A stretch of 49,774 bases of DNA from Bacteroidales bacterium (GTDB taxonomy: Bacteria; Bacteroidota; Bacteroidia; Bacteroidales; JAFGXI01), in assembly GCA_027064025.1 (NCBI GenBank), contig JAMOQL010000120.1, forward strand, positions 1 through 49,774, read 5' to 3'. Under the pieces are notes generated by a model. The model was not told the DNA's origin. It worked only from the letters and a program-made list of their open reading frames with translations, and did not search any database. Below, one piece after another: positions 714 through 21,779 of the stretch (position 1 is the first letter of the stretch; each line of letters starts with the position of its first letter). Made by a program: the position numbers and the translations under genes.

Positions 714-1634
714 TTAATATTTAATAATAAAATTTCTAACATTTTCTACGTTAGCAATTATTTCTTCTAATTGTTCATCTGTCATTTCAATTGTTGTTGT
801 TGTATTTGAAACCACAGTTAAAACGCCATCTACTTCAATCATTTCCGATTCTCCTTCGTGTTCTATTATATTAACTTTTGATAATGAAGCGTTTAAAGTT
901 TCTAACTGGTTATTTAGTTCGAAGAATTTTTTATCATTTTTATAATGAGACAGCACAATCAACAATTGTTCCAAAACAATCTTTTGTTCAGCTACCCGTT
1001 CTCTAATAGTTTGATTATCATTTTCTTTTACAACTTGAGTTGCTAAATACAGACCTTCGACCCATACTCCTGTAACCAACAACGAACTAATACTACTTCT
1101 ATGATTTTCTACTAAATAAGCATCCATATTATCAAAAGCCGAAATTGACATATACATTAAGGAGTCTATATTTTCACTATTTGTTGCCAAACGCTTTAAG
1201 GTTTCAAAGTTAAAAAACTGACCTACTTTCAATTCATCAGAAAGTTCTTTAATCGCTGTAATGTAATTAATAACAGCACCCGTTTTATTATACATATTTA
1301 GGTAACCCATATCTGCACCTAAAACACCCAAATTAAGAGCTTGCTTAAAACTGGTATTGTATTCATCAATATCATCGGTTGAGGATAAAAACTTATAATT
1401 AAATTCTATACCTTCATCTTTTAACAAGGCAGACATTTCTACAGGCGAAGAAATATTTGATATTATTTCTCCCATTGCTTCTTGATCTTCTTCTACAGGC
1501 ACATCGTTAAAAAGAGAATCAGGAACCTCAAAGTTCTCTACATTCAAATCTGTAGTGCTTGAGTCACCCGAGTTATTACAGGCTGAAAAAAAGAAAATAA
1601 TTGCTATTAAGCTAAGCGAAGTTTTAAATTTCAT
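714..1634 (-). CDS. Lipoprotein of unknown function with a predicted helical mature part
   Basis: I moved the start to the internal ATG at 1634 (MKFKTSLSLIAIIFFFSAC NN), which gives a lipobox Cys. The longer ORF-track start at 1697 would lie inside the ABC gene. The ATG overlaps the ABC gene stop by 4 nt (ATGA). Confidence 0.7.
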   Translation of the reverse strand: MKFKTSLSLIAIIFFFSACNNSGDSSTTDLNVENFEVPDSLFNDVPVEEDQEAMGEIISNISSPVEMSALLKDEGIEFNYKFLSSTDDIDEYNTSFKQALNLGVLGADMGYLNMYNKTGAVINYITAIKELSDELKVGQFFNFETLKRLATNSENIDSLMYMSISAFDNMDAYLVENHRSSISSLLVTGVWVEGLYLATQVVKENDNQTIRERVAEQKIVLEQLLIVLSHYKNDKKFFELNNQLETLNASLSKVNIIEHEGESEMIEVDGVLTVVSNTTTTIEMTDEQLEEIIANVENVRNFIIKY

Positions 1635-4600
1635 TTTTTGTGTTTTTTGATTCTTAAATAAAGATAAAATTGTTTTAAATTGAAATACTTTAGCCAATCA
1701 ACTTTTGAACTTATTATTAACAATTTACTTAACAAATCGAAGTATAATGTTATATAAAAGACAATTGTCATTAGCCAAATAATAATAATATTGAATCCAA
1801 ATGTATTATAATAATTTCCTGCAAAAAATTTCTTTGGAGCATAAAAATGTGAACGGAAATTAAAATATCCCTCATCACTTCTTGGAAGCATAAAAATTGG
1901 ATCTATTTGTTGAATAAGGGCATCGTTATATCTGATAAACTGATTCTTTTCATAGATGTTTTTAACTATATCGCTTACAGCATCATTTCTATAGTCATTC
2001 TTTAATTTCTTATACAATTTAGGATTGTTTTCCATTGCCCAAGATATTATCTTATCTTTTTTCCCATTAGCTTCGGTAAACATATTACTATAATAAGTAT
2101 TCAATTCCTCGATATATGACTTTGAAAGAAAAGTTATAAAAAGAGACAACGAATCGGGTTGTAATTTATCGACAAACTTATCGATTGGGAAATTCGGTAA
2201 AACATGATGTTGTTTTTTAAATTCGTTTTGCAATAAATCTAAATCTTCTATTACCTTTTTCTGAATTTGAGGATCGTCAGATTTACAATTTTTATAACTA
2301 TAATCAAGCCGTTCTTTTAACTCAGGGAGATAATAAATTTGTTTAAAATTAGAGACACTTTCTTTTTTATCAATTTCAAAAAACTTTTTCTCGTACTCAT
2401 TATTCTTAAATTGGTTAACCATAAGAGCTTCGTAAGCCCATTTAGAGGCCATAAATTCAGCTACAACAGGTACTTTTTCTACAGTTCCAATACTTCTGTT
2501 TAATTTATCGAAACTAAACATGGCTCCTCCTAAAATCATTTGTGGTATTAAAATTAAAGGAATCATAATATAGATTGTAACCACCGAATTAAAAGCCGAT
2601 GAAATATTTAAGCCCAAAATATTAGCAAAAGAAGCTATACTAAACAACACAATCCAATATTCATAAGTCATTCCCTTAATCCCAAGGATAGAATTACCAA
2701 TAATTGCAAACAGAGCCATTTGAATGGCTGATAAAGAAAATAGAATTCCTATTTTAGATATCAAATAGGAAGACCGACTCAGGTTAAGAAACTTTTCTCT
2801 TTTAAGTATCTTTCGATCTTTAAAAATCTCCTCCGCACTTACGGTAAGCCCCAAAAAAAGTGCAACCACAATTGTCATAAAGATATAAGGAGGGATATTT
2901 TCGTTTTCTCTAAAAATATACACCTGTGAATGCGGATCTGCAATATATCTAATAATAAAAGCTAAAATAACAGCAAGAAGCGGAGCTTCTAATAAATTCA
3001 TCACAATATATTGAGCATTACTTACCTTTGATAAAAAATCTCTTTTAAGATAAATAATTACTTGAGAAAACCATTTGGGTATAGATAAAGACTTTGGAGG
3101 TTGATCGTTAACTGTAGTTATGGCTTTAGTACTAATATTTTCTTGATAAGAATTAGCCCAAGTTTCGGGAAGTACTTTACGTTTTTCTTGAAAAATCCCA
3201 TATTCATCGACTACCTTTGCCTCAATAATATTAAAAATTAATTCAGGGTTTACATTTCCACAAACATGGCACTCCCCAACATCACTATTAACCTGAGCGT
3301 CAACCTTTTTGAAATACATCACTGCTTCTACAGGATTCCCAGAATATATTAAATAGCCTCCAGTATCGAGAATAATCATTCTATCAAACATTTTAAAAAT
3401 ATCTGATGATGGTTGATGAATAACCACGAAAATTAATTTTCCCTTAAGGCTTAACTCCCTTAATAAGTCCATAACATTCTCTGAATCTCTAGAAGAAAGT
3501 CCAGAAGTTGGTTCATCAACAAATAATACGGACGGTTCTCGTATTAATTCAAGAGCAATATTAAGCCGTTTTCGCTGTCCGCCACTAATCAATTTATTTA
3601 AAGGATTCCCTACTTTTAGATCGCGACGATCATATAACTCTAATGATTTTAGAGTTTTATTTACCAATGCATCTAATTCTTCTTTTGTAGAATCTTTAAA
3701 ACATAATTTTGCATTAAAGTATAAATTCTGATAAACAGTCAGCTCTTCAATTAACAAATCATCTTGAGGGATATAACCTATTACACCTTCCAATTCTTCT
3801 TTTTCTGCAAAAAGATCTAAACCATTAATTAATACCTGTCCACTTGTTGGGGCTTGTAAACCCGCCAGAACATTCATTAAAGTTGTTTTACCTGCTCCAC
3901 TGGCGCCCATTATTCCAACAAGTTTCCCTTGCTTTTCTTCGATATTTATATTTCGAAGTCCTAAATTCCCATTAGGAAATTGATAAACAATATTTTTGGC
4001 TTGAAAAGAAATATTTACCTGAGCCCTATCTCGCATAAAACGAGCTATAACATCACTATAATACAAAGGTTTACCCTTTGGTAATTTAATAGAGCTTCCA
4101 TTTGCAAATAAATAAATACTCTCCTTTGTTAATGGTAATCCATTTATTAACAAAGAATTAGCCCCAGTATATTTAACAAAATACAAATCGGTGCTTTCAA
4201 CTCTAAGAATACAAACACGCCCTTCTAAACCTTTTATATTAACATAAAACGAATGTTCGTCTGATTGTTGTTCACTTTCTTCGTAAACAATAATATTTTT
4301 GTTACTTATTTCAGAAATATTTGATAAGACATAGTTTTTAATGTCTTTTACCTCTGTAGAAGAAATATTGAATACTTCGGCAACTGTAGATATTATTGCC
4401 ATTCTTTGCTCAGTAAACTTTTTGTCAGAATTAACCAACTCATAAAGTCTAACTAGCACTACAACTTTCTGTTTCTGCGAAAGTGTTTTATTAATTTTTT
4501 TTGCAATTCCTAGAGTTTTTACAGAATCTCCAACTGAAGTAAGATTCCCTGTACTCTCTTCTTTTTTTTCTCTAAGTTTACTCGTTTTTTTACGAGATTT

Positions 4601-4765
4601 TGCTTTTTTCTCAAAGAGCTCTAAATATGAGTTTAAATCATGCTCTCCAATTTGCTGACGTAAGAACGCACGAACATAAGCCCGCTCAGTATCTTCAACT
4701 CCACCATCTTGTTTTGCAATAATTGCAAATAATTGCATTAAAGCTTTTAAAATCTCTTCACTCAT
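1631..4765 (-). CDS. ABCG-like fused ABC transporter (ATPase plus ABC-2 permease) with a long N-terminal regulatory extension (TerB-like helical region, then an FHA-like segment)
   Basis: Walker A GASGAGKTT, ABC signature LSGGQRKR and Walker B LFVDEPTSGL are present, followed by a multi-TM ABC-2-type region. A soluble insert of about 200 aa precedes the last TM. Roughly 280 aa lie ahead of Walker A. The start is 22 nt after the DUF1987 gene. Confidence 0.85.
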   Translation of the reverse strand: MSEEILKALMQLFAIIAKQDGGVEDTERAYVRAFLRQQIGEHDLNSYLELFEKKAKSRKKTSKLREKKEESTGNLTSVGDSVKTLGIAKKINKTLSQKQKVVVLVRLYELVNSDKKFTEQRMAIISTVAEVFNISSTEVKDIKNYVLSNISEISNKNIIVYEESEQQSDEHSFYVNIKGLEGRVCILRVESTDLYFVKYTGANSLLINGLPLTKESIYLFANGSSIKLPKGKPLYYSDVIARFMRDRAQVNISFQAKNIVYQFPNGNLGLRNINIEEKQGKLVGIMGASGAGKTTLMNVLAGLQAPTSGQVLINGLDLFAEKEELEGVIGYIPQDDLLIEELTVYQNLYFNAKLCFKDSTKEELDALVNKTLKSLELYDRRDLKVGNPLNKLISGGQRKRLNIALELIREPSVLFVDEPTSGLSSRDSENVMDLLRELSLKGKLIFVVIHQPSSDIFKMFDRMIILDTGGYLIYSGNPVEAVMYFKKVDAQVNSDVGECHVCGNVNPELIFNIIEAKVVDEYGIFQEKRKVLPETWANSYQENISTKAITTVNDQPPKSLSIPKWFSQVIIYLKRDFLSKVSNAQYIVMNLLEAPLLAVILAFIIRYIADPHSQVYIFRENENIPPYIFMTIVVALFLGLTVSAEEIFKDRKILKREKFLNLSRSSYLISKIGILFSLSAIQMALFAIIGNSILGIKGMTYEYWIVLFSIASFANILGLNISSAFNSVVTIYIMIPLILIPQMILGGAMFSFDKLNRSIGTVEKVPVVAEFMASKWAYEALMVNQFKNNEYEKKFFEIDKKESVSNFKQIYYLPELKERLDYSYKNCKSDDPQIQKKVIEDLDLLQNEFKKQHHVLPNFPIDKFVDKLQPDSLSLFITFLSKSYIEELNTYYSNMFTEANGKKDKIISWAMENNPKLYKKLKNDYRNDAVSDIVKNIYEKNQFIRYNDALIQQIDPIFMLPRSDEGYFNFRSHFYAPKKFFAGNYYNTFGFNIIIIWLMTIVFYITLYFDLLSKLLIISSKVDWLKYFNLKQFYLYLRIKKHKK

Positions 4766-4787
4766 GCGCTAAAATAAAGCAAAATAT

Positions 4788-5168
4788 TTAGTCTTCGTAT
4801 GGTATTTGTTCGAATGGAACATCTACAATATCAGCATATTCCTCACCAGCTTCTTCCATATCCTCATCATCTTCAGGAAAATACCATTTAACTGAAATTT
4901 CTTTTCCTGCCTCAAACATTTCTTCAAGTTTAAGAAGAATATCTAATAGTAATTTAGACGATGCTGTATTAAAATATTCTAATTTAAAGCCAAAAGTCAT
5001 TTTTTTATACTTGCTTTCTGAGAAATCTTCAAGCCAGTCTAGAATTGGATCATAAAATGCCCCAACATCTTCTGGCAAAGAGCGTCCAGACAACTGAAAA
5101 ATTTCATTCTCTACATCTAAAACAACTGCAGGAGTATCGTCCGTTCCTTGAATCTTGATTATATCCAT
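4788..5168 (-). CDS. SiaC-like DUF1987 regulatory phosphoprotein (partner-switch substrate)
   Basis: 126 aa. The N-terminus IKIQGTDDTPAVVLD..FQLSGRSLPED and the YFNT(68)ASSK motif are typical of DUF1987/SiaC proteins. The C-terminal tail is acidic. Confidence 0.75.
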   Translation of the reverse strand: MDIIKIQGTDDTPAVVLDVENEIFQLSGRSLPEDVGAFYDPILDWLEDFSESKYKKMTFGFKLEYFNTASSKLLLDILLKLEEMFEAGKEISVKWYFPEDDEDMEEAGEEYADIVDVPFEQIPYED

Positions 5169-5196
5169 AGTGTATTTATTTATCTTGTTATAGTTA

Positions 5197-5766
5197 TTAT
5201 TTCTTTCTTTCTATTCGCGATGTTAATATAAAAAATGATACCTGGTCATCGATATCTAAGAAATAGAATTCGAGTGGATTTCCTGTTTTTTTAGCAATAT
5301 CGATAAATCCTAGACCAGCTCCTTGCTTATCCGAAAGAGTACCTCCTTTAATTTGTTCTTTATGAAGTTTTTTTAATCCTTCTTTATCAAGGCTGTTTAT
5401 CAGATTTAGCTGATTTGTTAATTCTTTAATATTATCGTTTGAAACAACATTTCCTGTTGTTACACCATATTGATTTTCGTCTTTATGAATTAAAAAAACA
5501 CCTCTTTTTTCTTTATGGACTTCCCCTAAATCAACCTCCTCGGCATGTTTACTTATGTTTTGCAAACACTCTACCATAACATGAAAAACTTTCCGTTGGG
5601 TAGAACTCGACTCATCTGCTTTATCCATTGCAGATTCGGTTAAAGAGGTAAATGCTTTAGTTATATCATGAGTAATTTCTCCTTCGTATACCAAACTCAC
5701 TTCATTCTGTTTCATTAGTTTATAAAACTGAAAAACGCTTTTGATAAATTCACTTTCTTTAATCAT
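5197..5766 (-). CDS. SiaB-like small protein kinase (anti-sigma-factor-kinase/GHKL-like fold)
   Basis: 189 aa. It has the N-box-like ECLQNISKHA and the G-box-like GAGLGFIDIAKKTGNPLEF that I associate with SiaB-family kinases. It sits between the PP2C and DUF1987 genes. Confidence 0.7.
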   Translation of the reverse strand: MIKESEFIKSVFQFYKLMKQNEVSLVYEGEITHDITKAFTSLTESAMDKADESSSTQRKVFHVMVECLQNISKHAEEVDLGEVHKEKRGVFLIHKDENQYGVTTGNVVSNDNIKELTNQLNLINSLDKEGLKKLHKEQIKGGTLSDKQGAGLGFIDIAKKTGNPLEFYFLDIDDQVSFFILTSRIERKK

Positions 5767-5777
5767 TATTATATTCT

Positions 5778-8405
5778 TTAAAATCCAATTCCTATTAATA
5801 ATATATCATCTATTTGCTTATGCGCTCCTTTATATTCGTCAAAATCTTTAACAAACTTATTAGAATATTCAGGCATTCTCAATTCTTGATTCTTAATAAT
5901 TAACTCTCGCATCCTTTTAGCTTGATACTTTTTATGAGTCTTCTCGCCTACTTGATCAGGTAAACCATCCGAGAAAAAGAAAATCTTATCATCCTTTTTA
6001 ACATCAATTACATAATTTGTAAAATCTTTCTCTTTCTTTTTTTTATGAGGTATTCCTCCAATAGCCTTTCTATCACCTTTAAATATCTCTAAATTATTAT
6101 CACGCAATAAGTATAATGGGCGATGTGCTCCAGCATATTCTAAAACCTTTGTCTTTTTATTATATTTACATAATGCAATGTCCATACCGTCTCTAGCATT
6201 AGCTCCCTCTTGATCTTGACGAAGTGTTTTTCGTACTCCATAATGTAGTTCATCGCAAACTTGAGCTGCAGAAAGTTCTCTATCGTGGTCTACAATATTC
6301 TGTAATAAAAAATATCCAATAAACGAAAGTAAGGCACCTGGGACGCCGTGACCTGTACAATCTACTGCGGCAACATAAACATAGTCTCCTTTTTCAAAAA
6401 GCCATGGAAAATCTCCACTAACAACATCTTTAGGTTTATAAAATATAAAAGAGTCTTTAAAATGATTTTTCAAAACTCCATTATCAGGCAAAATAGCATT
6501 TTGAATTCTTTTAGCATAATTTATACTCTCTGTAATTTTTTTATTCTTATCCTTAATTTCTAGCTCAATCTTCTTTTGCTCTGTAATATCATGAGCCACA
6601 AACAAAACCGTTTCTAAAGTTTGTTGTTCATTATATTCTGGAATAGATGAAATATGCATAATTCTTTGCAACTCATCTGTATCAATAATAAACTCAGCTT
6701 CTTTGTTTACTGGATTTTGATTCATTTCATCGAGAACATTTTCGAAAAAATCTTGTAAACCATTCGGTAATTGGACTTCACTAATAGGTTTATTTATAGC
6801 TTCTTGCACCTGCACTCCTGTATATTGTGTAAAAGTAGGATTTAAATAGAAGAATTTTTTTGTTGAACTTCCAATTCTCATAATAACATCGTTAGAGTTT
6901 TCGGATAGAGATTGCATTTGTCCCCTTCTTCGTTGCTCTTTCTCGGCCAATTTTCTTTGCGATATATCTCGAGTATTTAGAATAATTCCAGCAATTGCGA
7001 GATTTTCTAAAAGATTGATAGCCGTAACTTCTAACCAAACTTTTATACCTTCGTTTTCTTTATACAAAAACTCTACACTTTCTTTCTTTGATGGATTCTG
7101 TTTTACAGAGTTAAATAATTCTTCTAAAATTTCTTGGTTTTGTCCAAGATCTTCAAATATATATGTACCTATCTTTTGGTCAGGCTCATAGCCTAATATT
7201 TTTGTCGTAGCAGGAGACTCATATTGTACAATTCCGTCTTCGTTAATTATTGATATTACCTCTGACGCATTCTCTAACAAAGAATTTAATTTAGTTTGTG
7301 AATTCTCAACTTCCTGAATTTTAATAGCTAAATCTTTATTGGTTTCCTCCAACTCTTCTTGAGTAGACAACATTTCCTCTGCATTTTGTCTTAATTCTTC
7401 TTCATTTTCCTGCAATTCGGTTGTCATTGCTTGTGACTCTGAAAGAAGATTCGCTGTTTTTTCATTAATTAGTATATTAAAGATCGTTTGACCAATAACA
7501 TCTCCTAAATTATTCACAAAATGAATAACACGCTCAGATATTTCGTTGTCAACAGCAGCAAACTCTATTACTCCTCTCAATTTTTCGTCACTAATTAAAG
7601 GAACCAATAAAATTGAGCCAGGCTTTTTATCACCAAGAATTCCAGAGCTAATAGAAACGTAGTCTTCTGGAATTTCTTTTCTATAAATATACTGCTTTTC
7701 GTATGCAACTTGTCCAATAAGACCAACTCCTATAGGAACTTCTTGTTTAATAAACTTCTGCCTGTCATAAGCATACGATGCAACATTTTCAAGAATTTGC
7801 TTTTCTTCATCATATAAATAGAAAGAGCCTTGAATTAAATTAGTGTAGCTTATAATATCTAACAATACTTGATAGGCTAGTTGATTAATATTATTGTATT
7901 TCCTTAAAGTTGAAGAAATAATATCTCGACCTTTTATTTGCCAATTTTGCTCAGTTTCTTTTATTGTTGATTCCTTAAGATTATCTCTCATTAAGATTAA
8001 TTTCTTAATTAAATCATCCTTTTTATTAGTATCTAAAGAAGCTTCGTAATTTCCTTTACTTATTTCATCAGAAAAGCTATAAATACTTTTTAAGTATTCT
8101 TTTTTATCAATTATTTCGTTTTTAAAAGAGGTTTGATCTTTATCTATTATTTTAGCTAGAATTAAAGCAACTCCACCTAAAATAAACGGAGCTAAATCGA
8201 TAACAAAATGTAGTGGATTTGAGATATGCATAGTCCATAAACCTGTAACCGTAATATGAATCCCTCTAAATAATATATCAATAGTCCATGAAATAATGGG
8301 GAACATCATTCCAAAGAGAAAGCCCGCAACAGGATATTTTTGGGTTTCTTCAGATAAATTAAAAAGCCCCTTTTCTACTTCAATATTTTCTTTTTGTTCT
8401 ATCAT
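5778..8405 (-). CDS. Membrane-anchored GAF / coiled-coil / 2x PAS / PP2C (SpoIIE-family) protein phosphatase, SiaA-like
   Basis: 875 aa. N-terminal hydrophobic helices, then a GAF (YAYDRQKF..GVGLIGQ..SSGILG), a Q/E-rich coil and two PAS-like blocks. The C-terminal SpoIIE/PP2C motifs are SGDFPW...AAVDCTGHGVPGALLS...FSDGLPDQ...DDILLIGI. The ATG overlaps the stop of the upstream GAF gene by 1 nt. Confidence 0.85.
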   Translation of the reverse strand: MIEQKENIEVEKGLFNLSEETQKYPVAGFLFGMMFPIISWTIDILFRGIHITVTGLWTMHISNPLHFVIDLAPFILGGVALILAKIIDKDQTSFKNEIIDKKEYLKSIYSFSDEISKGNYEASLDTNKKDDLIKKLILMRDNLKESTIKETEQNWQIKGRDIISSTLRKYNNINQLAYQVLLDIISYTNLIQGSFYLYDEEKQILENVASYAYDRQKFIKQEVPIGVGLIGQVAYEKQYIYRKEIPEDYVSISSGILGDKKPGSILLVPLISDEKLRGVIEFAAVDNEISERVIHFVNNLGDVIGQTIFNILINEKTANLLSESQAMTTELQENEEELRQNAEEMLSTQEELEETNKDLAIKIQEVENSQTKLNSLLENASEVISIINEDGIVQYESPATTKILGYEPDQKIGTYIFEDLGQNQEILEELFNSVKQNPSKKESVEFLYKENEGIKVWLEVTAINLLENLAIAGIILNTRDISQRKLAEKEQRRRGQMQSLSENSNDVIMRIGSSTKKFFYLNPTFTQYTGVQVQEAINKPISEVQLPNGLQDFFENVLDEMNQNPVNKEAEFIIDTDELQRIMHISSIPEYNEQQTLETVLFVAHDITEQKKIELEIKDKNKKITESINYAKRIQNAILPDNGVLKNHFKDSFIFYKPKDVVSGDFPWLFEKGDYVYVAAVDCTGHGVPGALLSFIGYFLLQNIVDHDRELSAAQVCDELHYGVRKTLRQDQEGANARDGMDIALCKYNKKTKVLEYAGAHRPLYLLRDNNLEIFKGDRKAIGGIPHKKKKEKDFTNYVIDVKKDDKIFFFSDGLPDQVGEKTHKKYQAKRMRELIIKNQELRMPEYSNKFVKDFDEYKGAHKQIDDILLIGIGF

Positions 8406-9094
8406 TATTCTTCGAATGCTTCAATTAAAAACTTAATTCTTCGTTCCGATATTTTCTTAAATGTAGCCACCTCAACAACGCCTACGACTTCTTTATGGTT
8501 AAAGATAGGTAAAATATACAAAAAATTTGGCTTAGCTTTACCTAATCCCGAAATTATTTCCATATCTATTTGTTCGGCAATATCAATCCCCACTGGCAAA
8601 CCACTAATAGCAACCTGCCCCGTAATACCTTCTCCCACTTTTATCTCTGTTGGATACATTTCATTGGCAAGAGCATAGCTCGTACTTATACTTAATATTT
8701 TATCTTTCTTTTCGTATGCTAAACCTGCAACCAATTGAATAGCGTCTGCTAATTTTTGAAATTTCAAATTAAATATTTCGCTTTTTGACAAATTACGATC
8801 TATTTGCTCAACTAATTTCAGGCATTTATTTTCTTCATCAATCTCATTTTCTATTATGTTATCTTCACTATTTTCATCTACCAGATTAGTAAGCGCTTCA
8901 AATTCTAATGATATCTTTTTATCTGAGCCTCTCAATAAAATAATATTTATAAGTAATAAAATAATTGATACAAATGCTGAAGAAAAAACAATCTGAGAAA
9001 AATATTTATATTGAATTAGATTTAATATAATTACTCCTATACAAAAAAGGAGGATTATCAAGTTTATATAATTTACTATTTTAAAATTTTTCAT
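8405..9094 (-). CDS. Membrane-anchored stand-alone GAF-domain protein
   Basis: 229 aa with two N-terminal TM helices and a C-terminal GAF (GEGITGQV..ISGLGKAKPNFLYILP..VVGVVEVATF). This GAF is paralogous to the GAFs of the 10506..12485 and 5778..8405 products. Confidence 0.75.
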   Translation of the reverse strand: MKNFKIVNYINLIILLFCIGVIILNLIQYKYFSQIVFSSAFVSIILLLINIILLRGSDKKISLEFEALTNLVDENSEDNIIENEIDEENKCLKLVEQIDRNLSKSEIFNLKFQKLADAIQLVAGLAYEKKDKILSISTSYALANEMYPTEIKVGEGITGQVAISGLPVGIDIAEQIDMEIISGLGKAKPNFLYILPIFNHKEVVGVVEVATFKKISERRIKFLIEAFEE

Positions 9095-9124: not shown

Positions 9125-9682
9125 TTATAAGTTATTAATAAATTTTGAAATATTTTCTACATTTAATATTTGGTCAGGCTTAAACAACTTCATTGCCGCA
9201 TTAGGCATTGTACTTATCTGACTATCATTGGGATCTTGTACAATTGTACAGCCTCCAAAATCAGAAATCTTTTTTAACCCGTATGCTCCATCTCTATTTG
9301 CTCCCGACAAAATAATTCCAACGAGTTTTTCTCTATAAGCCTCGGCTGCTGTTTGCAATGATAGGTCTATCGATGGTCTCGAATGGTTTACTTGTTCGCT
9401 AACAGAAAGAGAAATACGCCTGTCAACATCTATTAACATATGATAATTGGCTGGTGCTAAGTATGCAATTCCAGGCTTAACTATAGTTTTATCAGAGGGT
9501 TCAATTATTTTAATATTAGATTTAATAGATAGGGCTTCAACAAAGCCATTTCGAACGTGTTTTAAGCGATGTAAACTTAAAAAAACAGGGAGGTTAAAAT
9601 CTTTTGGCAAATGTGACAAAAGATGTACAATAACCTGAAAACTACCTGCTGACCCTCCTATTATTAATGCTTTATACGTCAT
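9125..9682 (-). CDS. CheB-like protein-glutamate methylesterase/deamidase, catalytic domain only with no receiver domain
   Basis: 185 aa. Candidate triad contexts are IIGGSAGS (Ser), FLSLHRL (His) and ILSGANRDG (Asp). These resemble the CheB motifs GASTGG / QHMP / TGMGxDG. The ATG overlaps the CheR-like stop by 1 nt (TAATG). Confidence 0.75.
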   Translation of the reverse strand: MTYKALIIGGSAGSFQVIVHLLSHLPKDFNLPVFLSLHRLKHVRNGFVEALSIKSNIKIIEPSDKTIVKPGIAYLAPANYHMLIDVDRRISLSVSEQVNHSRPSIDLSLQTAAEAYREKLVGIILSGANRDGAYGLKKISDFGGCTIVQDPNDSQISTMPNAAMKLFKPDQILNVENISKFINNL

Positions 9683-10503
9683 TAGTTCTTTTTCTTATAG
9701 ATACTCTCCTTGAGATTAAAAATAGTAAATAATTCTCTATTTGCATCATCTACTAAACTTTCTTTTACACCTAATATTAAAAAGCCTCTAGATTTTAAAC
9801 TTTTGATTAAGTTTTGAGCCACATCGGCTTGTTTCTTTTTATTATATCTTAATAAAATATTCCTATATAATATCATATTTACAGCCTTCGAAAACGGTTG
9901 TTCTATTTCATTATATTCGTATTGAATTGTATTATTAAATAGACTATTTAAAGGAATCATAACGTTCTGTACTTTCGTAAAATATTTTTCGTCTAAATTA
10001 TGCCCATCTATTCTCTTATAATTAGATAGACTTAGTCCATGTTTACGTTCTTCATAATTAAAACCTCCTTTCACATCCGAAAGCACCTTGAAAGGAGAGG
10101 AATAGAATACTTGAATTTTATCAGCCATCCCCAACTCTTCTCTTAAAATAAGAAATGATAATAATTCAGCACCTTGAAAGCAGGAAGGAATCCAAACCTT
10201 ATACATAATATCTCTAGAAAAATTATGCAAGACCTCTTCTTTTACAATCCGCCATAAAGCAGGGTCTCTAAATAATTCAAAAGAGTCAACTAATAAAAAT
10301 TTAATAAATTCATTTCTAAGACTCGAAATTTTCTTTACTTTATTAAAAAGGTCATCAACTGAAGTTATTTTGTATTTATCTATAAACTGTTCCATTTTTA
10401 TTTTGATGGAAACATATGTAAAATCAGATAAATCAAAATTATATATTTCGTTAATAAACTCTATAATTTTCTTTACATCTTTTATTTTAAGGCTAAATCC
10501 CAT
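9682..10503 (-). CDS. CheR-like methyltransferase-fold protein with divergent SAM-binding motifs
   Basis: 273 aa with CheR-like length and layout. KVWIPSCFQGAELLS aligns with canonical (R)VWSAxxSTGEEPYS, and MILYRNILLRYN aligns with IFCRNVMIYF. By eye the acidic ASDID-type motif is replaced by YSSPF. The start is 2 nt after the sensor stop. Confidence 0.65.
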   Translation of the reverse strand: MGFSLKIKDVKKIIEFINEIYNFDLSDFTYVSIKIKMEQFIDKYKITSVDDLFNKVKKISSLRNEFIKFLLVDSFELFRDPALWRIVKEEVLHNFSRDIMYKVWIPSCFQGAELLSFLILREELGMADKIQVFYSSPFKVLSDVKGGFNYEERKHGLSLSNYKRIDGHNLDEKYFTKVQNVMIPLNSLFNNTIQYEYNEIEQPFSKAVNMILYRNILLRYNKKKQADVAQNLIKSLKSRGFLILGVKESLVDDANRELFTIFNLKESIYKKKN

Positions 10504-10505
10504 TT

Positions 10506-12485
10506 TTACTCTTTACTATTTATTTTGGTTTCTAATTCTTTTATTCTTTGTAGTAATTCACTTTCTCTTCTCGACGATTCTTCTTGTGTAGCCTGCATTT
10601 CTTCGAGATTTTGTCTCATTTCTTCTTCTTGAGCAGATAACTCTTCAGATTGTTGCTGCGATTGTTCCAATAATTCCGACGTTTGCTGTGAAATTTTCAC
10701 AGAAGACAAGGTTGAGGCTATACTTTCGCTTATGGTTTCCATAAATTTTATTTTATAATCTTCAATGGGCTTAAAGGATGCTATTTCAATAACAGCAAAT
10801 ACTTTTTCTTCAATTTTCATTGGGACAATTAACAAAAACCTAGGGTTTGCAGTTCCTAATCCAGAAGATATATTAACATAATTATTTGGTATTTCTGAAA
10901 GATAAATAGTCTCCTTTTCAAATACACAAGCCCCTATTAAGCCTTCACCAAATTGAATTTCTTTTTCTAAGAATTTCTTTCTATCATACGCTACTGCCGA
11001 AATTAATTTCAAAGATTTTTCAGTATCGTTAACAATAAACAAACCACCCTGATTTGCTCCAATATACTCTATCACATTTCGAACAATCGTATCAGATAAA
11101 ACCGAAATATCATTTGAATTCTGCCTCAATATCTCTGAAAATTTAGCTATCCCCTCAGTCGCCCAGTTTCGTTTTTCCTCTTCTCGTTTTCTCTCTTGTT
11201 CTAGTTGGTCTGCTTCTTTTAGATTATCTCTCATTTTTATTAGAGAATGGCTTAAAACATCTTCTTCGTTGATATTTTTGAGATCAACTTCCAAATTACC
11301 CTTACCTATTTCATTTGCAAAACTAGTCGATTTTTTCAATCTATCTATCAAAGTATTAAACACATCAGTAATTATTCCAATCTCGTCTGTCCTTTTATTA
11401 TCGATGCTATCTATCAACTCTCCTTTAGCAATTCTTTGGATACTTTTCCCTAAACGGGTTATTGGCTTTGAAACAATCTTTGATATTAACAAAAACAAGA
11501 GAACAAAGCTTATGAAAAAAGCAAGCAATGCAACTATAATACTCGAGCGAATTAAACTAATCATTTTCGCTGAGCTTTCTTTATTATCGATTTGATATAC
11601 GACAAAAGCAATATTTTTTTCATTAAAATCTTTAATAGGAATAAATGCATAACTATATTTATCTGTACTTTTCAAATTTATTCCCAAACCATCTTTTATA
11701 TTAAAATCTTCTGCGTTAATACTTTGGTTGATATAGGCTTCTGAACTTGCCAATTCTACAAAATCCTCATTAGCCTCTATGTTTTTCTTATTTGATAGTT
11801 TGTCCAAACTATTCTTATCTATATACAAAGCATATTCTTTCCCTTCATGATTTTCAATTAACTCATCAATAAATTTCAAAAAAGGATATTCGATTTGAAC
11901 AGCTCCTATGTATTGATTTGTGTTATCTAATATTGGAGCTACAGCGTTTACAAACAAGCCATTTTGATTTACATCAATACCTTTTACAGCAGAATGTTTG
12001 TTAGATATTGTCAATAATATTTCTGAAAAATCACTTAAATCAGATCCTCTTTTATTTGACCACGTTTTATAAAAAGAAGTTGCTGGAGGTAATACAAATT
12101 GAATCCTAGTTTGGAGTTCACTAAGCTTATTTGTTTTGTCTACTAGAGGACTTATTGTTCTTCGTAAAATTGAACTTGTAGAATCCTGGTTATTAATTTT
12201 TTTTTGAAGAATATATGCCCAACGTACTGAAGGTAATTCAGAAAGCATCGAACTCGTAATAAGAGCTTGTTCTGATACTGTTTTCACTTTAGAATATAAT
12301 AATTCTTGAAATTTCACGGCATCCATAGTAACTCGTTCAGTTTGATAGTCTTTTGAATCTCTAATTTTTCTGAAGATTGCAAAACTTGTCAACAATAATA
12401 CAATTAACACTATAGGAATAACTAGTTTATTTGATATCGAAGATTTAATTTTTTCGAGAATATATTTTCTTTTCTTTTGTCCCAT
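10506..12485 (-). CDS. Membrane sensor: TM, Cache-like periplasmic domain, TM, HAMP, HAMP-like linker, GAF, Q/E-rich coiled-coil tail
   Basis: I moved the start to the ATG at 12485 (MGQKKRKYILEK.. followed by a TM helix). The ORF-track start at 12761 would overlap the divergent gene at 12574. HAMP is SKPITRLGKSIQRIAKGEL..DEIGIITDVFNTLIDRL. GAF is AYDRKKF..GEGLIGA..SSGLGTANPRFLLIVP. The protein has no kinase, cyclase or MCP signalling domain. Confidence 0.8.
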   Translation of the reverse strand: MGQKKRKYILEKIKSSISNKLVIPIVLIVLLLTSFAIFRKIRDSKDYQTERVTMDAVKFQELLYSKVKTVSEQALITSSMLSELPSVRWAYILQKKINNQDSTSSILRRTISPLVDKTNKLSELQTRIQFVLPPATSFYKTWSNKRGSDLSDFSEILLTISNKHSAVKGIDVNQNGLFVNAVAPILDNTNQYIGAVQIEYPFLKFIDELIENHEGKEYALYIDKNSLDKLSNKKNIEANEDFVELASSEAYINQSINAEDFNIKDGLGINLKSTDKYSYAFIPIKDFNEKNIAFVVYQIDNKESSAKMISLIRSSIIVALLAFFISFVLLFLLISKIVSKPITRLGKSIQRIAKGELIDSIDNKRTDEIGIITDVFNTLIDRLKKSTSFANEIGKGNLEVDLKNINEEDVLSHSLIKMRDNLKEADQLEQERKREEEKRNWATEGIAKFSEILRQNSNDISVLSDTIVRNVIEYIGANQGGLFIVNDTEKSLKLISAVAYDRKKFLEKEIQFGEGLIGACVFEKETIYLSEIPNNYVNISSGLGTANPRFLLIVPMKIEEKVFAVIEIASFKPIEDYKIKFMETISESIASTLSSVKISQQTSELLEQSQQQSEELSAQEEEMRQNLEEMQATQEESSRRESELLQRIKELETKINSKE

Positions 12486-12533
12486 TGCTTTTCGGATATC
12501 TAAATTTTTAACCTTAATTTCTAATTTTAGTTT

Positions 12534-12541
12534 TATCTTTG
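12534..12541 (+). promoter_or_regulatory. Bacteroidota-type -7 box (TATCTTTG, consensus TAnnTTTG) for the THUMP methyltransferase gene
   Basis: Exact match to TAnnTTTG, 33 nt upstream of the ATG at 12574, inside the divergent intergenic region 12486..12573. Confidence 0.4.
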
Positions 12542-12573
12542 CACAAATTACTTTTACTTTTACAAGATACATA

Positions 12574-13758
12574 ATGTTTGGAAAAAGAATAAAAATTATT
12601 GCAAAAACTTTTTTTGGTCTAGAAGACATTCTAAAAAAAGAGATAGAACAGTTAGGGGCTAAGAAAATTAAAACCCTCAATAGAGCTGTTGAGTTTGAAG
12701 GAGATTTAGAGCTCTTATATACCGCTAATTTAAAATTAAGAACTGCTCTTTCTATTATCACTCCTATATTTGAATTTAAAGCAAAGAATGATGACCAGCT
12801 TTATAAACAAGTGTTAGAGTATAATTGGGGACGCATCTTCAATTTACATCAAACATTTGCCGTTTTCTCAGTGGTTCATTCAGAATTTTTTAATCATTCT
12901 CAGTACACATCTCTAAAAATTAAAGATGGAATAGCTGACCATTTTCGTCAAAAATACAATGAAAGACCAGATGTTGACAAGAAATTTGCAGATATTAAAA
13001 TAGTTGCTCATATCAACGACGATAAGGTTACCATTCTATTAGACACCTCTGGTAAAGCATTATTCCAAAGAGGATACAAGACAGAAATAACAGAAGCTCC
13101 CATAAACGAAGTTCTTGCTGCTGGTATAATATTACAATCTGATTGGGATATGAAAACTCCATTTATCGACCCTATGTGTGGTTCGGGAACTTTTCTTATT
13201 GAAGCGGCAATGATTGCTTCTAACACGCCTCCAAATATTTATAGACAACGATTTGGGTTCCAGAATCTAAGAAATTACGATGAGCTTCTTTGGAATTCTA
13301 TTTTAGATAAAGCAACCAAAGAAATTATTGAAGAAATTCCACCTATTCTCGGAAATGATATATCTGACGAGGTCATCGAAATAGCTCAAACAAATATTGA
13401 TAATACCAGATTTAAAAGAAATATTAGTTTGAATTGTGCCCATTTCACAAATTTTGAGCATGAACAAAAAGACGGTACTTTAATTACCAATCCACCTTAC
13501 GACGAACGTCTTAAAACGGCAGACATTATCGAGCTTTATCAAGATTTAGGTGATACTTTTAAAGAAAAATATAAGAATTTTGATTGTTGGGTTTTTTCGG
13601 GAAACCTACCAGCTCTTAAACGCTTAGGTCTTAAAACATCAAGACGCATCAAACTGTTTAACGGTCCTATTGAAGGTCGCTTAAATTTATACAAAATGTA
13701 CGATGGGAGCAAAAGAACTAAATATAATCAATATTTTGGAACTCCTGATCAGGACTAA
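12574..13758 (+). CDS. THUMP-domain class I SAM-dependent RNA methyltransferase (RlmL/RlmK N-terminal-like, UPF0020)
   Basis: 394 aa. THUMP-like N-terminus, SAM motif I DPMCGSGTFLIEA and catalytic NPPYDERL. Confidence 0.8.
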   Translation: MFGKRIKIIAKTFFGLEDILKKEIEQLGAKKIKTLNRAVEFEGDLELLYTANLKLRTALSIITPIFEFKAKNDDQLYKQVLEYNWGRIFNLHQTFAVFSVVHSEFFNHSQYTSLKIKDGIADHFRQKYNERPDVDKKFADIKIVAHINDDKVTILLDTSGKALFQRGYKTEITEAPINEVLAAGIILQSDWDMKTPFIDPMCGSGTFLIEAAMIASNTPPNIYRQRFGFQNLRNYDELLWNSILDKATKEIIEEIPPILGNDISDEVIEIAQTNIDNTRFKRNISLNCAHFTNFEHEQKDGTLITNPPYDERLKTADIIELYQDLGDTFKEKYKNFDCWVFSGNLPALKRLGLKTSRRIKLFNGPIEGRLNLYKMYDGSKRTKYNQYFGTPDQD

Positions 13759-18493: not shown

Positions 18494-19180
18494 CTATTTA
18501 GATTCTATTAACGTTTTAATATAAGGTATTATTTTATCAAAAATTTCCTTGGCATTACCCATTTCATTTGAAGAATTGGCGCAGTTAACCATTTTAAATT
18601 TATCTCGAATAGCAACTTGTTGCATATATATAAATCTTACTTGCTGTTGGAAATTCAGATCTTCTTCATGGATATCTGCTTGACCATGTAAATAATCTCT
18701 ATCACCGCCATCTCTTTGCTTTGTGAGCTGAGTTTCTGTAAAGCTCGGCGGTACATCTAAAAATATGTTTAGATCTGGTTTTGGAATCTTAAAATACTCA
18801 AACTCCATATCTAAAATCCAATTTGCCAAGCGATCTTGCTCGTGAATGGTTCCTAATTTTGCACATTGAAAAGCAACATTTGAATACACATATCGATCGG
18901 CAATAACAACATAACCTTCGCCCAACCAATTCTTAATCTGTACTTTAGAATTATTTCTGTCGCCAGCATATAATAAGGCAACCAAATGTGGATTAACTTG
19001 ATTGTTTGCTCCCAATTCGCCTCTCAAGAATTTAGCAACCAACTCTCCAAAAATGGGTGATTCGGTTTCTGGGAAATGAATAAACTTAGTTTTTAAACCC
19101 TTATCGTTAAAATACTGAGTAATTTTTTCTACTTGTGTAGATTTTCCAGCACCATCTAAACCTTCTAAAACTATGAACAT
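18494..19180 (-). CDS. tmk: dTMP (thymidylate) kinase
   Basis: 228 aa with the P-loop MFIVLEGLDGAGKSTQ and a DRY motif (ADRYVYS). Confidence 0.85.
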   Translation of the reverse strand: MFIVLEGLDGAGKSTQVEKITQYFNDKGLKTKFIHFPETESPIFGELVAKFLRGELGANNQVNPHLVALLYAGDRNNSKVQIKNWLGEGYVVIADRYVYSNVAFQCAKLGTIHEQDRLANWILDMEFEYFKIPKPDLNIFLDVPPSFTETQLTKQRDGGDRDYLHGQADIHEEDLNFQQQVRFIYMQQVAIRDKFKMVNCANSSNEMGNAKEIFDKIIPYIKTLIESK

Positions 19181-19253
19181 TCGTTATTTTTTAATGATTT
19201 TGACTACAAAAATAATATTTTATAGTTGATATTATCTAGTCTTAGCTTATTAT

Positions 19254-20303
19254 TTATTGATTGAAATAAATCCTTAATTCTGTATCGTCGAAATGGTAAA
19301 TAGAATTAACTCTTGCCCTAAAATCTGGAGCTTTAATTCCTGATCCAAACTGTTTTGATCCTACAAAAACTCTTGCTTCGTCCCAAATATTTTTTGAAAT
19401 AAAACCATCTAAAACAATTTGCCCTCCTTCAATAACTATAGACTGAACTTCCATTTTGTACAATTCATTTAAAATCTGATTCTCAAGTTCTATTTTATCA
19501 TCAATTAAAATAAAATTAGTATTCTGATATGTCCTAGACGGCAACTTAGAAGTAAAAATAATAGTCTTCTGAGAGTCGTCAAGCAGATTTAAGTTTTCAG
19601 GGAAAATACCTTTCCTATCAACCGAAACTCTCAAAGGAGCATTCCCCGCCCAAGCCCTTACGTTAAGCTGAGGATTATCTTTAATAGCTGTTTGTGTTCC
19701 AACCAAAAACGCAGGCTCTTCTGTCCGCCATTTATGTACATACGATCGAGATATTTCGTTTGTTATCCAAGCAGCCTCGGGATGTTCTTGAGTCCTATCG
19801 TAATCTATAAACCCGTCTTTTGTTTCTGCCCATTTAAGAATAATATAAGGTCTTTTCTTTTGATGAAATGTAAAAAATCTTCTATTAATATCTAAGCTTT
19901 CTTTTTCTAGCACACCTACTCGAACATCAATACCCGCCGCTTTCATCATTGCAATACCTTGCCCAGCAACCTTATCGAAACTATCGACACAACCAATAAC
20001 GACACAAGGAATCTTACTATTAATAATTAATGTTGAACAAGCAGGGGTTCTACCAACATGAGCACAAGGCTCTAGGTTCACATATATAGTAGAGCGCTCT
20101 AATAGAGATTTATCTTCAACAGAATTTATCGCATTAACCTCGGCATGAGCCTCTCCACACTGATGATGATATCCTTCTCCAATAATTTTACCATCATGTA
20201 CTATTACCGACCCTACCATAGGATTCGGTTGAGCCGTTCCTCGTCCCAATTTGGCTAGTTGCAAACAACGGTGCATGTATTTTATATCTACAGATGTTTC
20301 CAA
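19254..20303 (-). CDS. ribD: Bifunctional riboflavin biosynthesis protein RibD (deaminase/reductase)
   Basis: 349 aa. The CMP/dCMP deaminase zinc motifs HAEVNA and PCAHVGRTPAC are present, with a C-terminal RibD reductase-like domain. Confidence 0.9.
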   Translation of the reverse strand: METSVDIKYMHRCLQLAKLGRGTAQPNPMVGSVIVHDGKIIGEGYHHQCGEAHAEVNAINSVEDKSLLERSTIYVNLEPCAHVGRTPACSTLIINSKIPCVVIGCVDSFDKVAGQGIAMMKAAGIDVRVGVLEKESLDINRRFFTFHQKKRPYIILKWAETKDGFIDYDRTQEHPEAAWITNEISRSYVHKWRTEEPAFLVGTQTAIKDNPQLNVRAWAGNAPLRVSVDRKGIFPENLNLLDDSQKTIIFTSKLPSRTYQNTNFILIDDKIELENQILNELYKMEVQSIVIEGGQIVLDGFISKNIWDEARVFVGSKQFGSGIKAPDFRARVNSIYHFDDTELRIYFNQ

Positions 20304-20306
20304 TAT

Positions 20307-21779
20307 TTATTTTTTAAACCAACTCTCAACTAAATCCAAACTCTTAAAAGCATTTCCTATATAAGAATATTCGTTGGTATGAGAGCTGTATTCATAATCT
20401 TTTTCTAAATCTTCAACGTCTTGAATAATTTCTTCAACAGCATTAATAATCAACTCTAACTCAGAGTTTTTCATCGTTGGATGAATAGATAACCTAACCC
20501 AACCTGGTTTTAAAGACAAATCACCAAGGTTAATCTTTTCTGTTATTTCATGCGACTTTTTATAGTCAACATCTAACATTATATGACCGTAAGTACCTGC
20601 GCAAGCACAGCCTCCACGAACTTGTACTCCATATTTATCACTCAATAATTTCACAATTAAATTGAAATGAATATCGTTATGATAAAAAGAAATAGCCCCT
20701 ATCCTATTTCTATGCTCTTGAGCCAAAACATTGATACCTTCTATTTTTGTTAGTCCATCAATAGCCAAATTTACCAACTCATGTTCTCGTTGCATAATCT
20801 TTTTACAATCCATTTCTTCTTTAAGCTGAATACTTAAAGCAGTCCTCATCGTTTGTAAAAAGCCAGGAGTCCCTCCATCTTCACGGAGTTCTATATCATC
20901 AATAAATTTATACTCTCCCCAAGCGTTAGTCCAATCTACAGTTCCTCCACCTGGATTATCTGGAACTGCATTTTTGTATAGAGACTTATCAAAAATTAAT
21001 ACACCCGAAGAACCTGGGCCTCCCAAAAATTTATGTGGTGAAAACATGACAGCATCAAGTTTATCCATATTATCTTTAGGATGCATATCTATCTCAACAT
21101 AGGGTGCCGATCCTGCAAAATCAATAAAACAAAGCCCCCCATTTTCGTGCATTAATTTCGCCATCTGATGATATGGAGTAATAATTCCTGTAACATTGGA
21201 TGCCGCTGAGAAAGCTCCAATTTTTAACGTTCTATCTTTATATTTTTCTAATTCTAATTTTAAATTATCGAGCGAAACCAATAAATCGTTTGAAGGAGGC
21301 ACAATAACCACATCACAATCTGTTAAATACCAAGATGTTTGATTAGAATGATGCTCCATATGCGTAATAAAAACAACTGGTCTTTCGCTCGTTCTGCAAC
21401 TACAAGATTCGTTAATCTTCTGATTACAAGTCTTTAATCCTAAAATCCGTTGAAACTTATTAACAACTGCTGTCATTCCAAAGCCTGCCGTTATTATTAC
21501 ATCATTTTCGTTAGCATTGACATGAGATTTAATAATATGTTGAGCCCGATGATATGCTCGAGTCATCTGAGTTCCACTTTCGCTAGTTTCTGTATGAGTA
21601 TTGGCAACGAAAGGACCAATATCATTAATTATTTTCTCTTCGATGGGTCGATATAAACGCCCCGAAGCAATCCAATCGGCGTAAATCATAATTTGTTTAC
21701 CAAAAGGAGAATGATAAACTTGTTGATCGCCAATAATATTTTTTCTAAATGTTTGGAAGTATTGTTCAAGATTGCTCAT
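20307..21779 (-). CDS. Class V aminotransferase-fold PLP-dependent enzyme (cysteine desulfurase-like family)
   Basis: 490 aa. PLP-lysine context FSPHKFLGGPGSSGVL and overall class V layout. Substrate is unknown. Confidence 0.75.
   Translation of the reverse strand: MSNLEQYFQTFRKNIIGDQQVYHSPFGKQIMIYADWIASGRLYRPIEEKIINDIGPFVANTHTETSESGTQMTRAYHRAQHIIKSHVNANENDVIITAGFGMTAVVNKFQRILGLKTCNQKINESCSCRTSERPVVFITHMEHHSNQTSWYLTDCDVVIVPPSNDLLVSLDNLKLELEKYKDRTLKIGAFSAASNVTGIITPYHQMAKLMHENGGLCFIDFAGSAPYVEIDMHPKDNMDKLDAVMFSPHKFLGGPGSSGVLIFDKSLYKNAVPDNPGGGTVDWTNAWGEYKFIDDIELREDGGTPGFLQTMRTALSIQLKEEMDCKKIMQREHELVNLAIDGLTKIEGINVLAQEHRNRIGAISFYHNDIHFNLIVKLLSDKYGVQVRGGCACAGTYGHIMLDVDYKKSHEITEKINLGDLSLKPGWVRLSIHPTMKNSELELIINAVEEIIQDVEDLEKDYEYSSHTNEYSYIGNAFKSLDLVESWFKK

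Follow-up and report, generated by a model that had tools for sequence, protein, structure and literature searches.

The locus described here raises the question of why a membrane sensor and a PP2C-type protein phosphatase, encoded in one operon together with homologues of the chemotaxis enzymes CheR and CheB, carry the same linker-GAF-coil module, and what this module might do in either protein. The operon lies in contig JAMOQL010000120.1 of a Bacteroidales bacterium (GCA_027064025.1), and the whole stretch analyzed, 49,774 nucleotides long, is referred to below as the window. We found that the module is the input/transmitter part of a SiaA-type PP2C phosphatase and the mark of a large family of Bacteroidota receptors, most of which have no output domain. 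The data suggest that an uncharacterized chemotaxis-like adaptation system drives a SiaABC-type phosphatase switch.

The shared module and its coil

The initial annotation had described the phosphatase (aa 110-360, positions 7326-8078) and the sensor (aa 387-645) as running parallel block by block, and this parallel is real. In a single BLASTP alignment of the 875-aa PP2C protein (query; 5778-8405, minus strand) with the sensor open reading frame (ORF) (subject; 10506-12761, minus strand), aa 96-375 of the former matched aa 469-749 of the latter with 39% identity and 61% positives over 289 columns (E=5e-48). The span first proposed for the phosphatase falls within the true module (7281-8120), and the sensor numbering, which had been counted from an internal methionine (Met93) of the ORF, is consistent with ours. 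The motifs quoted at the time are all there (YAYDRQKF/VAYDRKKF, GVGLIGQ/GEGLIGA, and the Q/E coil), and Pfam confirms the two PAS domains and the SpoIIE/PP2C domain that follow the module in the phosphatase. The three blocks of the module are significant singly by tblastn with composition-based statistics (E-values of 2.7e-8 for the linker, 3.9e-25 for the GAF domain, and 1.4e-8 for the coil). Smith-Waterman comparison with 2,000 composition-preserving shuffles gave z scores of 14.1, 36.5, and 11.5, respectively, the coil scoring 128 and its highest shuffle 82. The likeness is therefore not due to low-complexity coil composition, an objection foreseen in the initial annotation that fails on these block-wise scores. 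Judged by the alignments, the sensor and PP2C modules are true paralogues.

Both GAF domains are recognized by GAF_2 (PF13185) at similar scores (46.4 bits in the phosphatase and 47.4 in the sensor, with a cut-off of 28.6). An AlphaFold2 model of the phosphatase copy (mean predicted local distance difference test, pLDDT, of 88) consists of a helix (residues 2-21), a loop, a second helix (36-74), the GAF fold, and an unbroken helix (196-279), so that the coil-bearing helix is about 85 residues long and continuous from the last GAF helix. The HAMP profile (PF00672) misses the shared linker: of six linkers scanned at E≤10, one, from a relative, gave a weak match (E=0.028, 15 bits), and neither window copy gave any. 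Going by the model, the linker is HAMP-like in shape and length only. The window contains only these two copies of the module. The GAF domain of the small protein encoded at 8405-9094 is diverged (29% identity over 106 aa to that of the sensor, E about 1e-10 by tblastn), and this protein has no coil. The idea that the sensor and phosphatase GAF domains sense the same class of ligand could not be upheld. The two are about 36 to 38% identical and split long ago, and, since a fold search with the model returned only generic matches to solved GAF structures (TM score up to 0.8 on the target, at most 21% identity), no ligand can be inferred for them.

Orthologous copies are far closer to each other than paralogous ones, with a GAF identity of 0.64 between PP2C copies, 0.51 between sensor copies, and 0.385 between paralogues. 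A recent duplication was rejected on this basis. On these identities, the duplication is old and precedes the split between Bacteroidales and Cytophagales.

The coil is built on the family motif QEEE[LM]RQN.EE[LM].ATQEE[LM], whose columns are nearly invariant across relatives. In 426 motif copies from 150 representative proteins, conservation is 96 to 100% at the positions E, E, (E), R, Q, N, E, and E, and 97 to 100% when the bracketed E is set aside. A hydrophobic L or M recurs every seven residues, with an EE pair directly before each, and these pairs would lie on the f/g flank of the heptad if the register is taken from this periodicity. In 286 of the 426 copies, the sequence of the third heptad is EE[LM].A[ST], and the methylation consensus of chemoreceptors is Glu-Glu-X-X-Ala-Thr (PMC1079850). 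The EEMQAT of the window sensor, a protein that ends about 40 residues past the motif, is an exact fit to this consensus; the window PP2C copy reads EEMLST, with Ser in place of Ala. The best reading of the coil, circumstantial but coherent, is suggested by these sites, namely, that it is methyl-accepting or deamidated.

A profile of the 53-residue coil alone was searched against representative proteins (clusters at 50% identity) and matched 3,723 of them at E≤1e-3 and 1,493 at E≤1e-10. The motif is present in 1 to 10 copies per protein (2 to 10 in the best matches), mostly between GAF and PAS or between PAS and PAS, giving a family architecture of the type (sensor)-HAMP-GAF-coil-[PAS-coil]n. 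The whole module was recovered in 134 to 137 of the 150 representatives, none of which had any similarity to CheB/CheR. Domain annotation of 47 sampled members gave GAF in 43 and PAS in 41, with SpoIIE, HATPase_c, and MCPsignal appearing in one each. By its domain content, the typical family member is a receptor without an output domain, the window sensor being one such, and the phosphatase is one of the few members with an attached enzyme. PF28175, a recent Pfam family, is listed in precomputed annotation for three of the module proteins (P0001, P0003, and P0006). A word-index homologue search with the coil alone retrieved fragments of up to 93 aa and no architectures.

One membrane receptor, P0120 (locus L083, 8001-10778), carries behind its GAF domain a tandem array of six 70-residue repeats, in each of which the full motif is present, and nothing further downstream; CheR and CheB are absent within 8 kb of its gene. 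With these tandem repeats leading to no further domain, the coil is a discrete reusable unit, more than a linker.

A conserved operon with CheB, CheR-like, and SiaABC-type proteins

The module-bearing proteins of the window belong to a tight operon of eight genes on the minus strand (Table 1), in which several stop and start codons overlap or nearly abut in the ORF list. From the first gene to the last, it encodes the sensor, a CheR-like protein, CheB, a small GAF protein, the PP2C phosphatase, SiaB, SiaC, and a TerB-domain ABC transporter (TerB-ABC). The operon sits at the end of the metagenome contig (ENA ERZ27262656). MCPsignal (PF00015) had no match in the sensor, the phosphatase, or the other operon proteins. 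Neither HisKA nor HATPase_c was found by Pfam in the window proteins, for which the output is SpoIIE/PP2C or none. Neither the operon proteins nor the larger ORFs that were scanned in the rest of the window included methyl-accepting chemotaxis proteins (MCPs), CheA, CheW, or flagellar proteins; these ORFs encode housekeeping functions.

Table 1. Operon genes, module copies, and coil motifs located in the window
Feature	Position	Strand	Basis
Sensor: transmembrane segment (TM), dCache_3, TM, HAMP, linker, GAF, coil; without output domain	10506..12572	-	Pfam; 688-aa gene call
Module copy at sensor C-terminus (ORF aa 469-749)	10515..11357	-	BLASTP, tblastn
Sensor core coil motif, containing EEMQAT	10578..10628	-	Motif mapping
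CheR-like protein, paralogue group R2, degenerate S-adenosylmethionine (SAM)-binding motifs	9682..10503	-	PF01739 48.8 bits; alignment to 5ftw
CheB methylesterase/deamidase, catalytic domain alone, 185 aa	9125..9682	-	PF01339 156.9 bits; alignment to 3sft
Small two-TM membrane protein, diverged GAF, no coil	8405..9094	-	GAF_2 18.4 bits, under cut-off
Phosphatase, 875 aa: membrane segment, module, PAS, PAS, SpoIIE/PP2C (SiaA-like)	5778..8405	-	Pfam; NF038263
Module copy in phosphatase (aa 96-375): helix-loop-helix linker, GAF, one long coil-bearing helix	7281..8120	-	BLASTP, tblastn, AlphaFold2
Phosphatase core coil motif EEELRQNAEEMLSTQEEL (aa 335-352)	7350..7403	-	Near-invariant columns in three alignments
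SiaB-family protein kinase (DUF6272)	5197..5766	-	PF19788 143.8 bits; NF038262 174.2 bits
SiaC-family phosphoprotein (DUF1987), Thr68 kept	4788..5168	-	PF09345 139.3 bits; alignment to 6kko
TerB-domain ABC transporter, 1044 aa, ATPase + ABC2 membrane domain	1631..4765	-	Pfam

Some details of the individual genes can be added. The GTG-started ORF of the sensor runs to 12761, and its 5' part (12574-12761) overlaps a divergent RlmL/THUMP methyltransferase gene (12574-13758, plus strand); the true start is probably downstream of the GTG, either that of the 688-aa gene call or Met93. The stop codon of the small GAF protein gene overlaps the start codon of the phosphatase, and the gene is kept between CheB and the phosphatase in most related operons. 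The first 95 residues of the phosphatase form a conserved polytopic membrane segment with no sizeable periplasmic domain, in which relatives show the recurring motif G..xxxH...P.L...D..P. Such a segment may act as an input embedded in the membrane.

With one genome scanned per species, at least 568 relatives were obtained, from which 80 loci, all from Bacteroidota, were kept, and the neighborhood counts that follow rest on these. About 60 of them are orthologous operons of the form (extra CheR), sensor, CheR, CheB, small GAF, PP2C, SiaB, SiaC, TerB-ABC, spanning from metagenome-assembled genomes (MAGs) of Bacteroidales/Marinilabiliales to the Cytophagales Chryseolinea and Ohtaekwangia. Of the 57 loci with sufficient flank, 55 had CheB and a CheR-like gene immediately upstream of PP2C, and in 47 of 48 the PP2C gene was followed by SiaB, SiaC, and TerB-ABC. 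A sensor-type module was found upstream of PP2C in 32 of 50 loci, the other 18 having an operon without sensor. Many of the relatives' sensors have PAS-PAS after the coil and still no output, mirroring the regulatory half of the phosphatase (module plus PAS-PAS) minus the catalytic domain. There are variants of this arrangement. Two Draconibacterium-like loci (L036 and L037, 9674-12304) have PP2C-SiaB-SiaC-TerB-ABC with an intact motif and no CheR, CheB, or sensor within 10 kb upstream, and in five others, of the Marinilabilia, Saccharicrinis, and Alkaliflexus type (L055, L057, L059, L063, and L068), an additional CheB lies upstream of the sensor, and a pair of CheR genes separates the sensor from CheB. 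The initial annotation had reasoned that a ubiquitous cassette, unrelated to CheR/CheB neighborhoods, would speak against its proposal, and both sides of this have some truth: the phosphatase-borne copy of the module is tightly tied to CheR/CheB, whereas the module at large is widespread and often orphan.

The two chemotaxis-type enzymes differ in their state of preservation. We take the GSSTGG, QH, and KDG motifs of CheB to hold its catalytic Ser/His/Asp triad. Residues Ser11, His38, and Asp131 of the window protein align with these motifs of Thermotoga maritima CheB (3sft). Pfam finds its catalytic domain only, the receiver domain being absent, and its activity is therefore not under the control of CheA-type phosphorylation. 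The CheR-like protein exceeds the cut-off of the CheR profile (PF01739, 48.8 bits against 27), and its SAM-binding motifs were judged by the W.A.CSTGEE loop, the acidic residue of ATDID, and CRNV.IYF. In the alignment to 5ftw, the window protein has WIPSCFQGAE (CFQGAE for CSTGEE), YSSP (SSP for TDID), and YRNILLRY (RNILLRY for RNVFIYF). There are two CheR paralogues in related operons, R1, which is canonical (IWHAGCSTGQEVYS, ATDIN, CRNVIIYF), and R2, which is found beside CheB and is degenerate; at L010, for example, R1 is located at 4361-5200 and R2 at 7531-8361. The R2 group as a whole is degenerate at the SAM site, where the acidic residue and the GxGEE-type loop are lost, and retains the non-SAM motifs FRDPxxW and RN; the window gene, an R2, ranks with its most degenerate members. 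In Cytophagales such as L061, there is a single CheR, and it is canonical. Going by these motifs, R2 could be a pseudo-methyltransferase that binds without catalysis, or an adaptor.

The lower half of the operon points to a SiaABC-type switch. The phosphatase reaches 161.7 bits with the SiaA model NF038263, over the catalytic part only and below the cut-off of 700, so it is not a SiaA equivalog; the kinase is well above the SiaB cut-off (NF038262, 174.2 bits against 85). The DUF1987 protein named in the initial annotation is a SiaC homologue, in which alignment to 6kko shows the phospho-acceptor Thr68 to be conserved. In Pseudomonas aeruginosa, the phosphorylation state of SiaC is determined by SiaA and SiaB, and SiaC in its unphosphorylated form switches on the diguanylate cyclase SiaD (PMC8457831; PMC7647112). 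No GGDEF protein, that is, no SiaD counterpart, is encoded in the operon, and the TerB-ABC transporter comes after SiaC instead. In the paper on the SiaC structure, it is suggested that proteins with DUF1987 modulate the activity of those adjacent to them (PMC8457831). Since the TerB-ABC transporter is an invariant neighbor and no cyclase is present, it is the likeliest, and a probable, target of SiaC.

Comparison with known systems

The closest counterparts that we could identify are proteins of the methyl-accepting coiled-coil (MAC) type. The classes MAC1 and MAC2 were defined bioinformatically by Wuichet & Zhulin 2010 and are carried in MiST3, MAC1 having CheB and CheR fused to the protein and MAC2 having them as separate, associated proteins (PMC6943060; bioRxiv 10.1101/2022.05.07.491037). 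MAC proteins combine receptor and kinase domains and are described as experimentally uncharacterized (bioRxiv 10.1101/2022.05.07.491037). The present operon shares with them the presence of CheB/CheR homologues without neighboring CheA, CheW, or MCP, beside multidomain sensory proteins with a Glu-rich, consensus-matching coiled coil. However, MAC proteins are described with a kinase, and the output here is a PP2C phosphatase feeding a SiaB/SiaC switch, with a sensor that has no output. Unlike in MAC1, CheR and CheB are separate genes, not fused to the coil protein. In this they resemble MAC2, since separate CheB and CheR genes adjoin the coil-bearing protein in the window and in 55 of 57 related loci, although the receptor-kinase combination is missing and the comparison with MAC2 is with secondary descriptions of that class.

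The coil of the fusion proteins was compared directly. All of 120 CheB/CheR fusion (MAC1-type) proteins have a coil of the form NEELQATNEEL..SNEELQSTNEEL, and this coil (NEELQATNEEL..SNEELQSTNEELQSVNEEL, with NEELQ[AS]TNEEL repeats) is likewise built of EE..[AS][ST] heptads. The overlap between the two motifs is zero, with the module motif in 0 of the 120 fusion proteins and the fusion motif in 0 of the 150 module proteins, and the coil profile scores the fusion proteins at about 6 bits. Homology between the two coils was rejected on both counts, and the module coil therefore makes up a second class, distinct from the fusion type but following the same logic of design. No CheB/CheR fusion turned up in a scan of metagenome contigs. 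One Bacteroidales MAG (L051) has a MAC1-type fusion gene at about 18800-20813, some 5 to 6 kb downstream of the orthologous operon and about 2 kb past TerB-ABC, and so both coil classes can coexist in one genome.

MCPs of the Tsr/Tar type also have a periplasmic Cache-type input, HAMP, and a long helical region, as well as many orphan receptor genes beside one core operon, and one member of the module family is fused to an MCP signaling domain. They differ in that here the MCPsignal hairpin is missing, a single helix stands in place of the antiparallel four-helix bundle, a GAF domain is inserted, CheB has no receiver domain, and there are no CheA, CheW, or flagellar genes among the scanned ORFs. 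With SiaABCD of Pseudomonas aeruginosa, the operon shares the gene order of a membrane-anchored PP2C preceded by a HAMP-type segment, a SiaB kinase, and a SiaC with Thr68 (PMC7647112, PMC8457831). Here, in contrast, SiaD is replaced by TerB-ABC, the input is GAF-coil-PAS-PAS, and CheR/CheB and extra receptors are found upstream. We have filed the system as a MAC-like CheR/CheB-associated receptor system with a SiaABC-type partner switch as output. Our literature search found no paper on this operon type or on the coils of CheB/CheR fusions.

Proposed mechanism and alternatives

The explanation that we favor starts from the coil as the common signaling and adaptation element of the family, the exposed, heptad-spaced Glu-Glu or Gln-Glu pairs being the residues modified. 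The co-encoded CheB would deamidate or demethylate these pairs and a CheR methyltransferase would methylate them; as the CheR-like copy in the operon appears catalytically degenerate, the methyltransferase of this genome is probably a canonical paralogue with its gene elsewhere. The modification would tune a conformation relayed by the helix to the PAS-PAS-PP2C part. The phosphatase would then dephosphorylate SiaC at Thr68, opposing the SiaB kinase, and unphosphorylated SiaC would act on a neighboring target, most likely the TerB-ABC transporter. The sensor would supply a periplasmic (dCache) input, either via mixed oligomers with the phosphatase or through competition for the shared enzymes, and this is the weakest step. 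Taken as a whole (a coil modified by CheB/CheR, tuning PP2C on SiaC and fed by the sensor), we consider the explanation about evenly poised between holding and failing.

A CheR/CheB substrate site shared by both coils is a reasonable inference, because the modules are paralogous, the PP2C copy adjoins CheB and a CheR-like gene, and the EE pairs are heptad spaced and match the consensus. Several observations weigh on the other side. The window CheR-like protein has neither the conserved acidic residue nor the GxGEE-type loop of the SAM site, and no R1-type, canonical, or further CheR-like gene was found in the whole 49.7-kb window; any methylation in this organism therefore depends on an enzyme whose gene is elsewhere, or else there is only CheB-type deamidation/demethylation. 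At 17 cassette loci of the genome scan (L065-L067 and L069-L082), where the module proteins are of the sensor type, and around P0120, CheR and CheB were absent within 8 to 10 kb, Pfam scans of the cassette genes and their neighbors in two of these loci (L072 and L079) giving neither, and two PP2C loci without nearby CheR/CheB still have the coil motif. Conserved Q, N, and T, which are polar, occupy the inferred core d positions, as would also suit a purely mechanical signaling helix. Finally, there was no gene conversion or detectable coevolution between sensor and PP2C modules. The proposal in the initial annotation that both proteins are substrates of the same modifying enzymes stands, then, as far as the CheB/CheR-like adjacency, the EE pairs, and the consensus match carry it, and is weakened by the degenerate R2 of the window, the missing canonical paralogue, and the orphan members. 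By analogy with orphan chemoreceptor genes, orphan module genes would not exclude a shared modifying enzyme.

The coil could instead be a purely mechanical signaling helix, a metastable dimeric coiled coil relaying conformational change from the GAF to the next domain, with CheR/CheB acting elsewhere or being vestigial. Its conservation would then stem from the demands of packing and register and not from recognition by enzymes. The single continuous helix of the AlphaFold2 model, from the last GAF helix through the coil, is what such a device would look like, as is the location of the motif, in most relatives, between GAF and PAS or PAS and PAS. Polar Q, N, and T at one heptad position are like those of register-setting coiled coils, and the degeneracy of the window CheR-like protein and the distance of many family members from CheR/CheB go in the same direction. 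However, the window sensor and P0120, with its six tandem copies, have the motif with no domain downstream, and near-invariant charged and presumably exposed EE, RQ, and EE are not predicted by a packing constraint. An intact-looking CheB also adjoins PP2C in 55 of 57 loci, and we find the purely mechanical role rather doubtful.

It seems unlikely that the coil is foremost a docking surface, by which output-less receptors join PP2C in mixed complexes, either coil to coil or via R2 or the small GAF protein as adaptor, with modification secondary or absent. Hetero-oligomers of sensor and phosphatase, already proposed in the initial annotation, are attractive because the sensor has no output domain, and the same is true of most family members. 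The conservation of the degenerate R2 beside CheB, keeping FRDPxxW and RN, is as expected of a binding-only pseudoenzyme, and the operon sensors of many relatives mirror the regulatory half of the phosphatase (module plus PAS-PAS). Coevolution lends no backing, however. The identity between sensor and PP2C modules is equal within and across genomes (0.244 versus 0.237 for the linker, 0.385 versus 0.385 for the GAF, and 0.410 versus 0.405 for the coil), and in a permutation test the same-genome identity was not raised, the observed value being reached in 216 (coil), 1135 (GAF), and 325 (linker) of 2000 permutations. In addition, 18 of the 50 loci have no sensor in the operon.

Ordinary domain sharing within a signaling gene family, with no functional coupling beyond co-transcription, is very improbable. 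In its favor, the duplication is old, with orthologous GAF domains (0.64 and 0.51) far more alike than paralogous ones (0.385), and the module is very common. Against it stand the tightness of the operon, in which stop and start codons overlap, and the sensor's repeated presence upstream, seen in 32 of 50 loci from two orders.

The duplicated module itself is an ordinary family resemblance. The interest lies in the conserved system around it and in the near-invariant, methylation-site-like coil. Beyond the modified coil as a local adaptation element, there is a bolder possibility that we put forward with considerable doubt: Bacteroidota without flagellar chemotaxis might run a chemoreceptor-like network devoid of CheA and CheW, in which dozens of output-less HAMP-GAF-coil(-PAS) receptors and one PP2C would have a methyl-accepting coil in common, adaptation would be the work of CheR, CheB, and a pseudo-CheR adaptor, and the read-out of the integrated signal would be the phosphorylation of SiaC controlling TerB-ABC. 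If true, it would amount to a chemosensory pathway of a new class, one whose output is a partner switch.

Adaptation by CheR/CheB is understood almost solely for chemoreceptors signaling to CheA, and MAC-type systems were predicted in 2010. The operon is a compact and strongly conserved test case, with a candidate substrate motif, an enzymatic read-out (dephosphorylation of phospho-SiaC by PP2C), and two carriers in culture, Chryseolinea lacunae and Ohtaekwangia kribbensis. Should the coil prove to be modified, the reach of sensory adaptation through reversible methylation of glutamate would grow to take in partner switches run by Ser/Thr phosphatases as well as a large Bacteroidota family of receptors, and a function would be at hand for thousands of output-less "GAF/PAS domain proteins."

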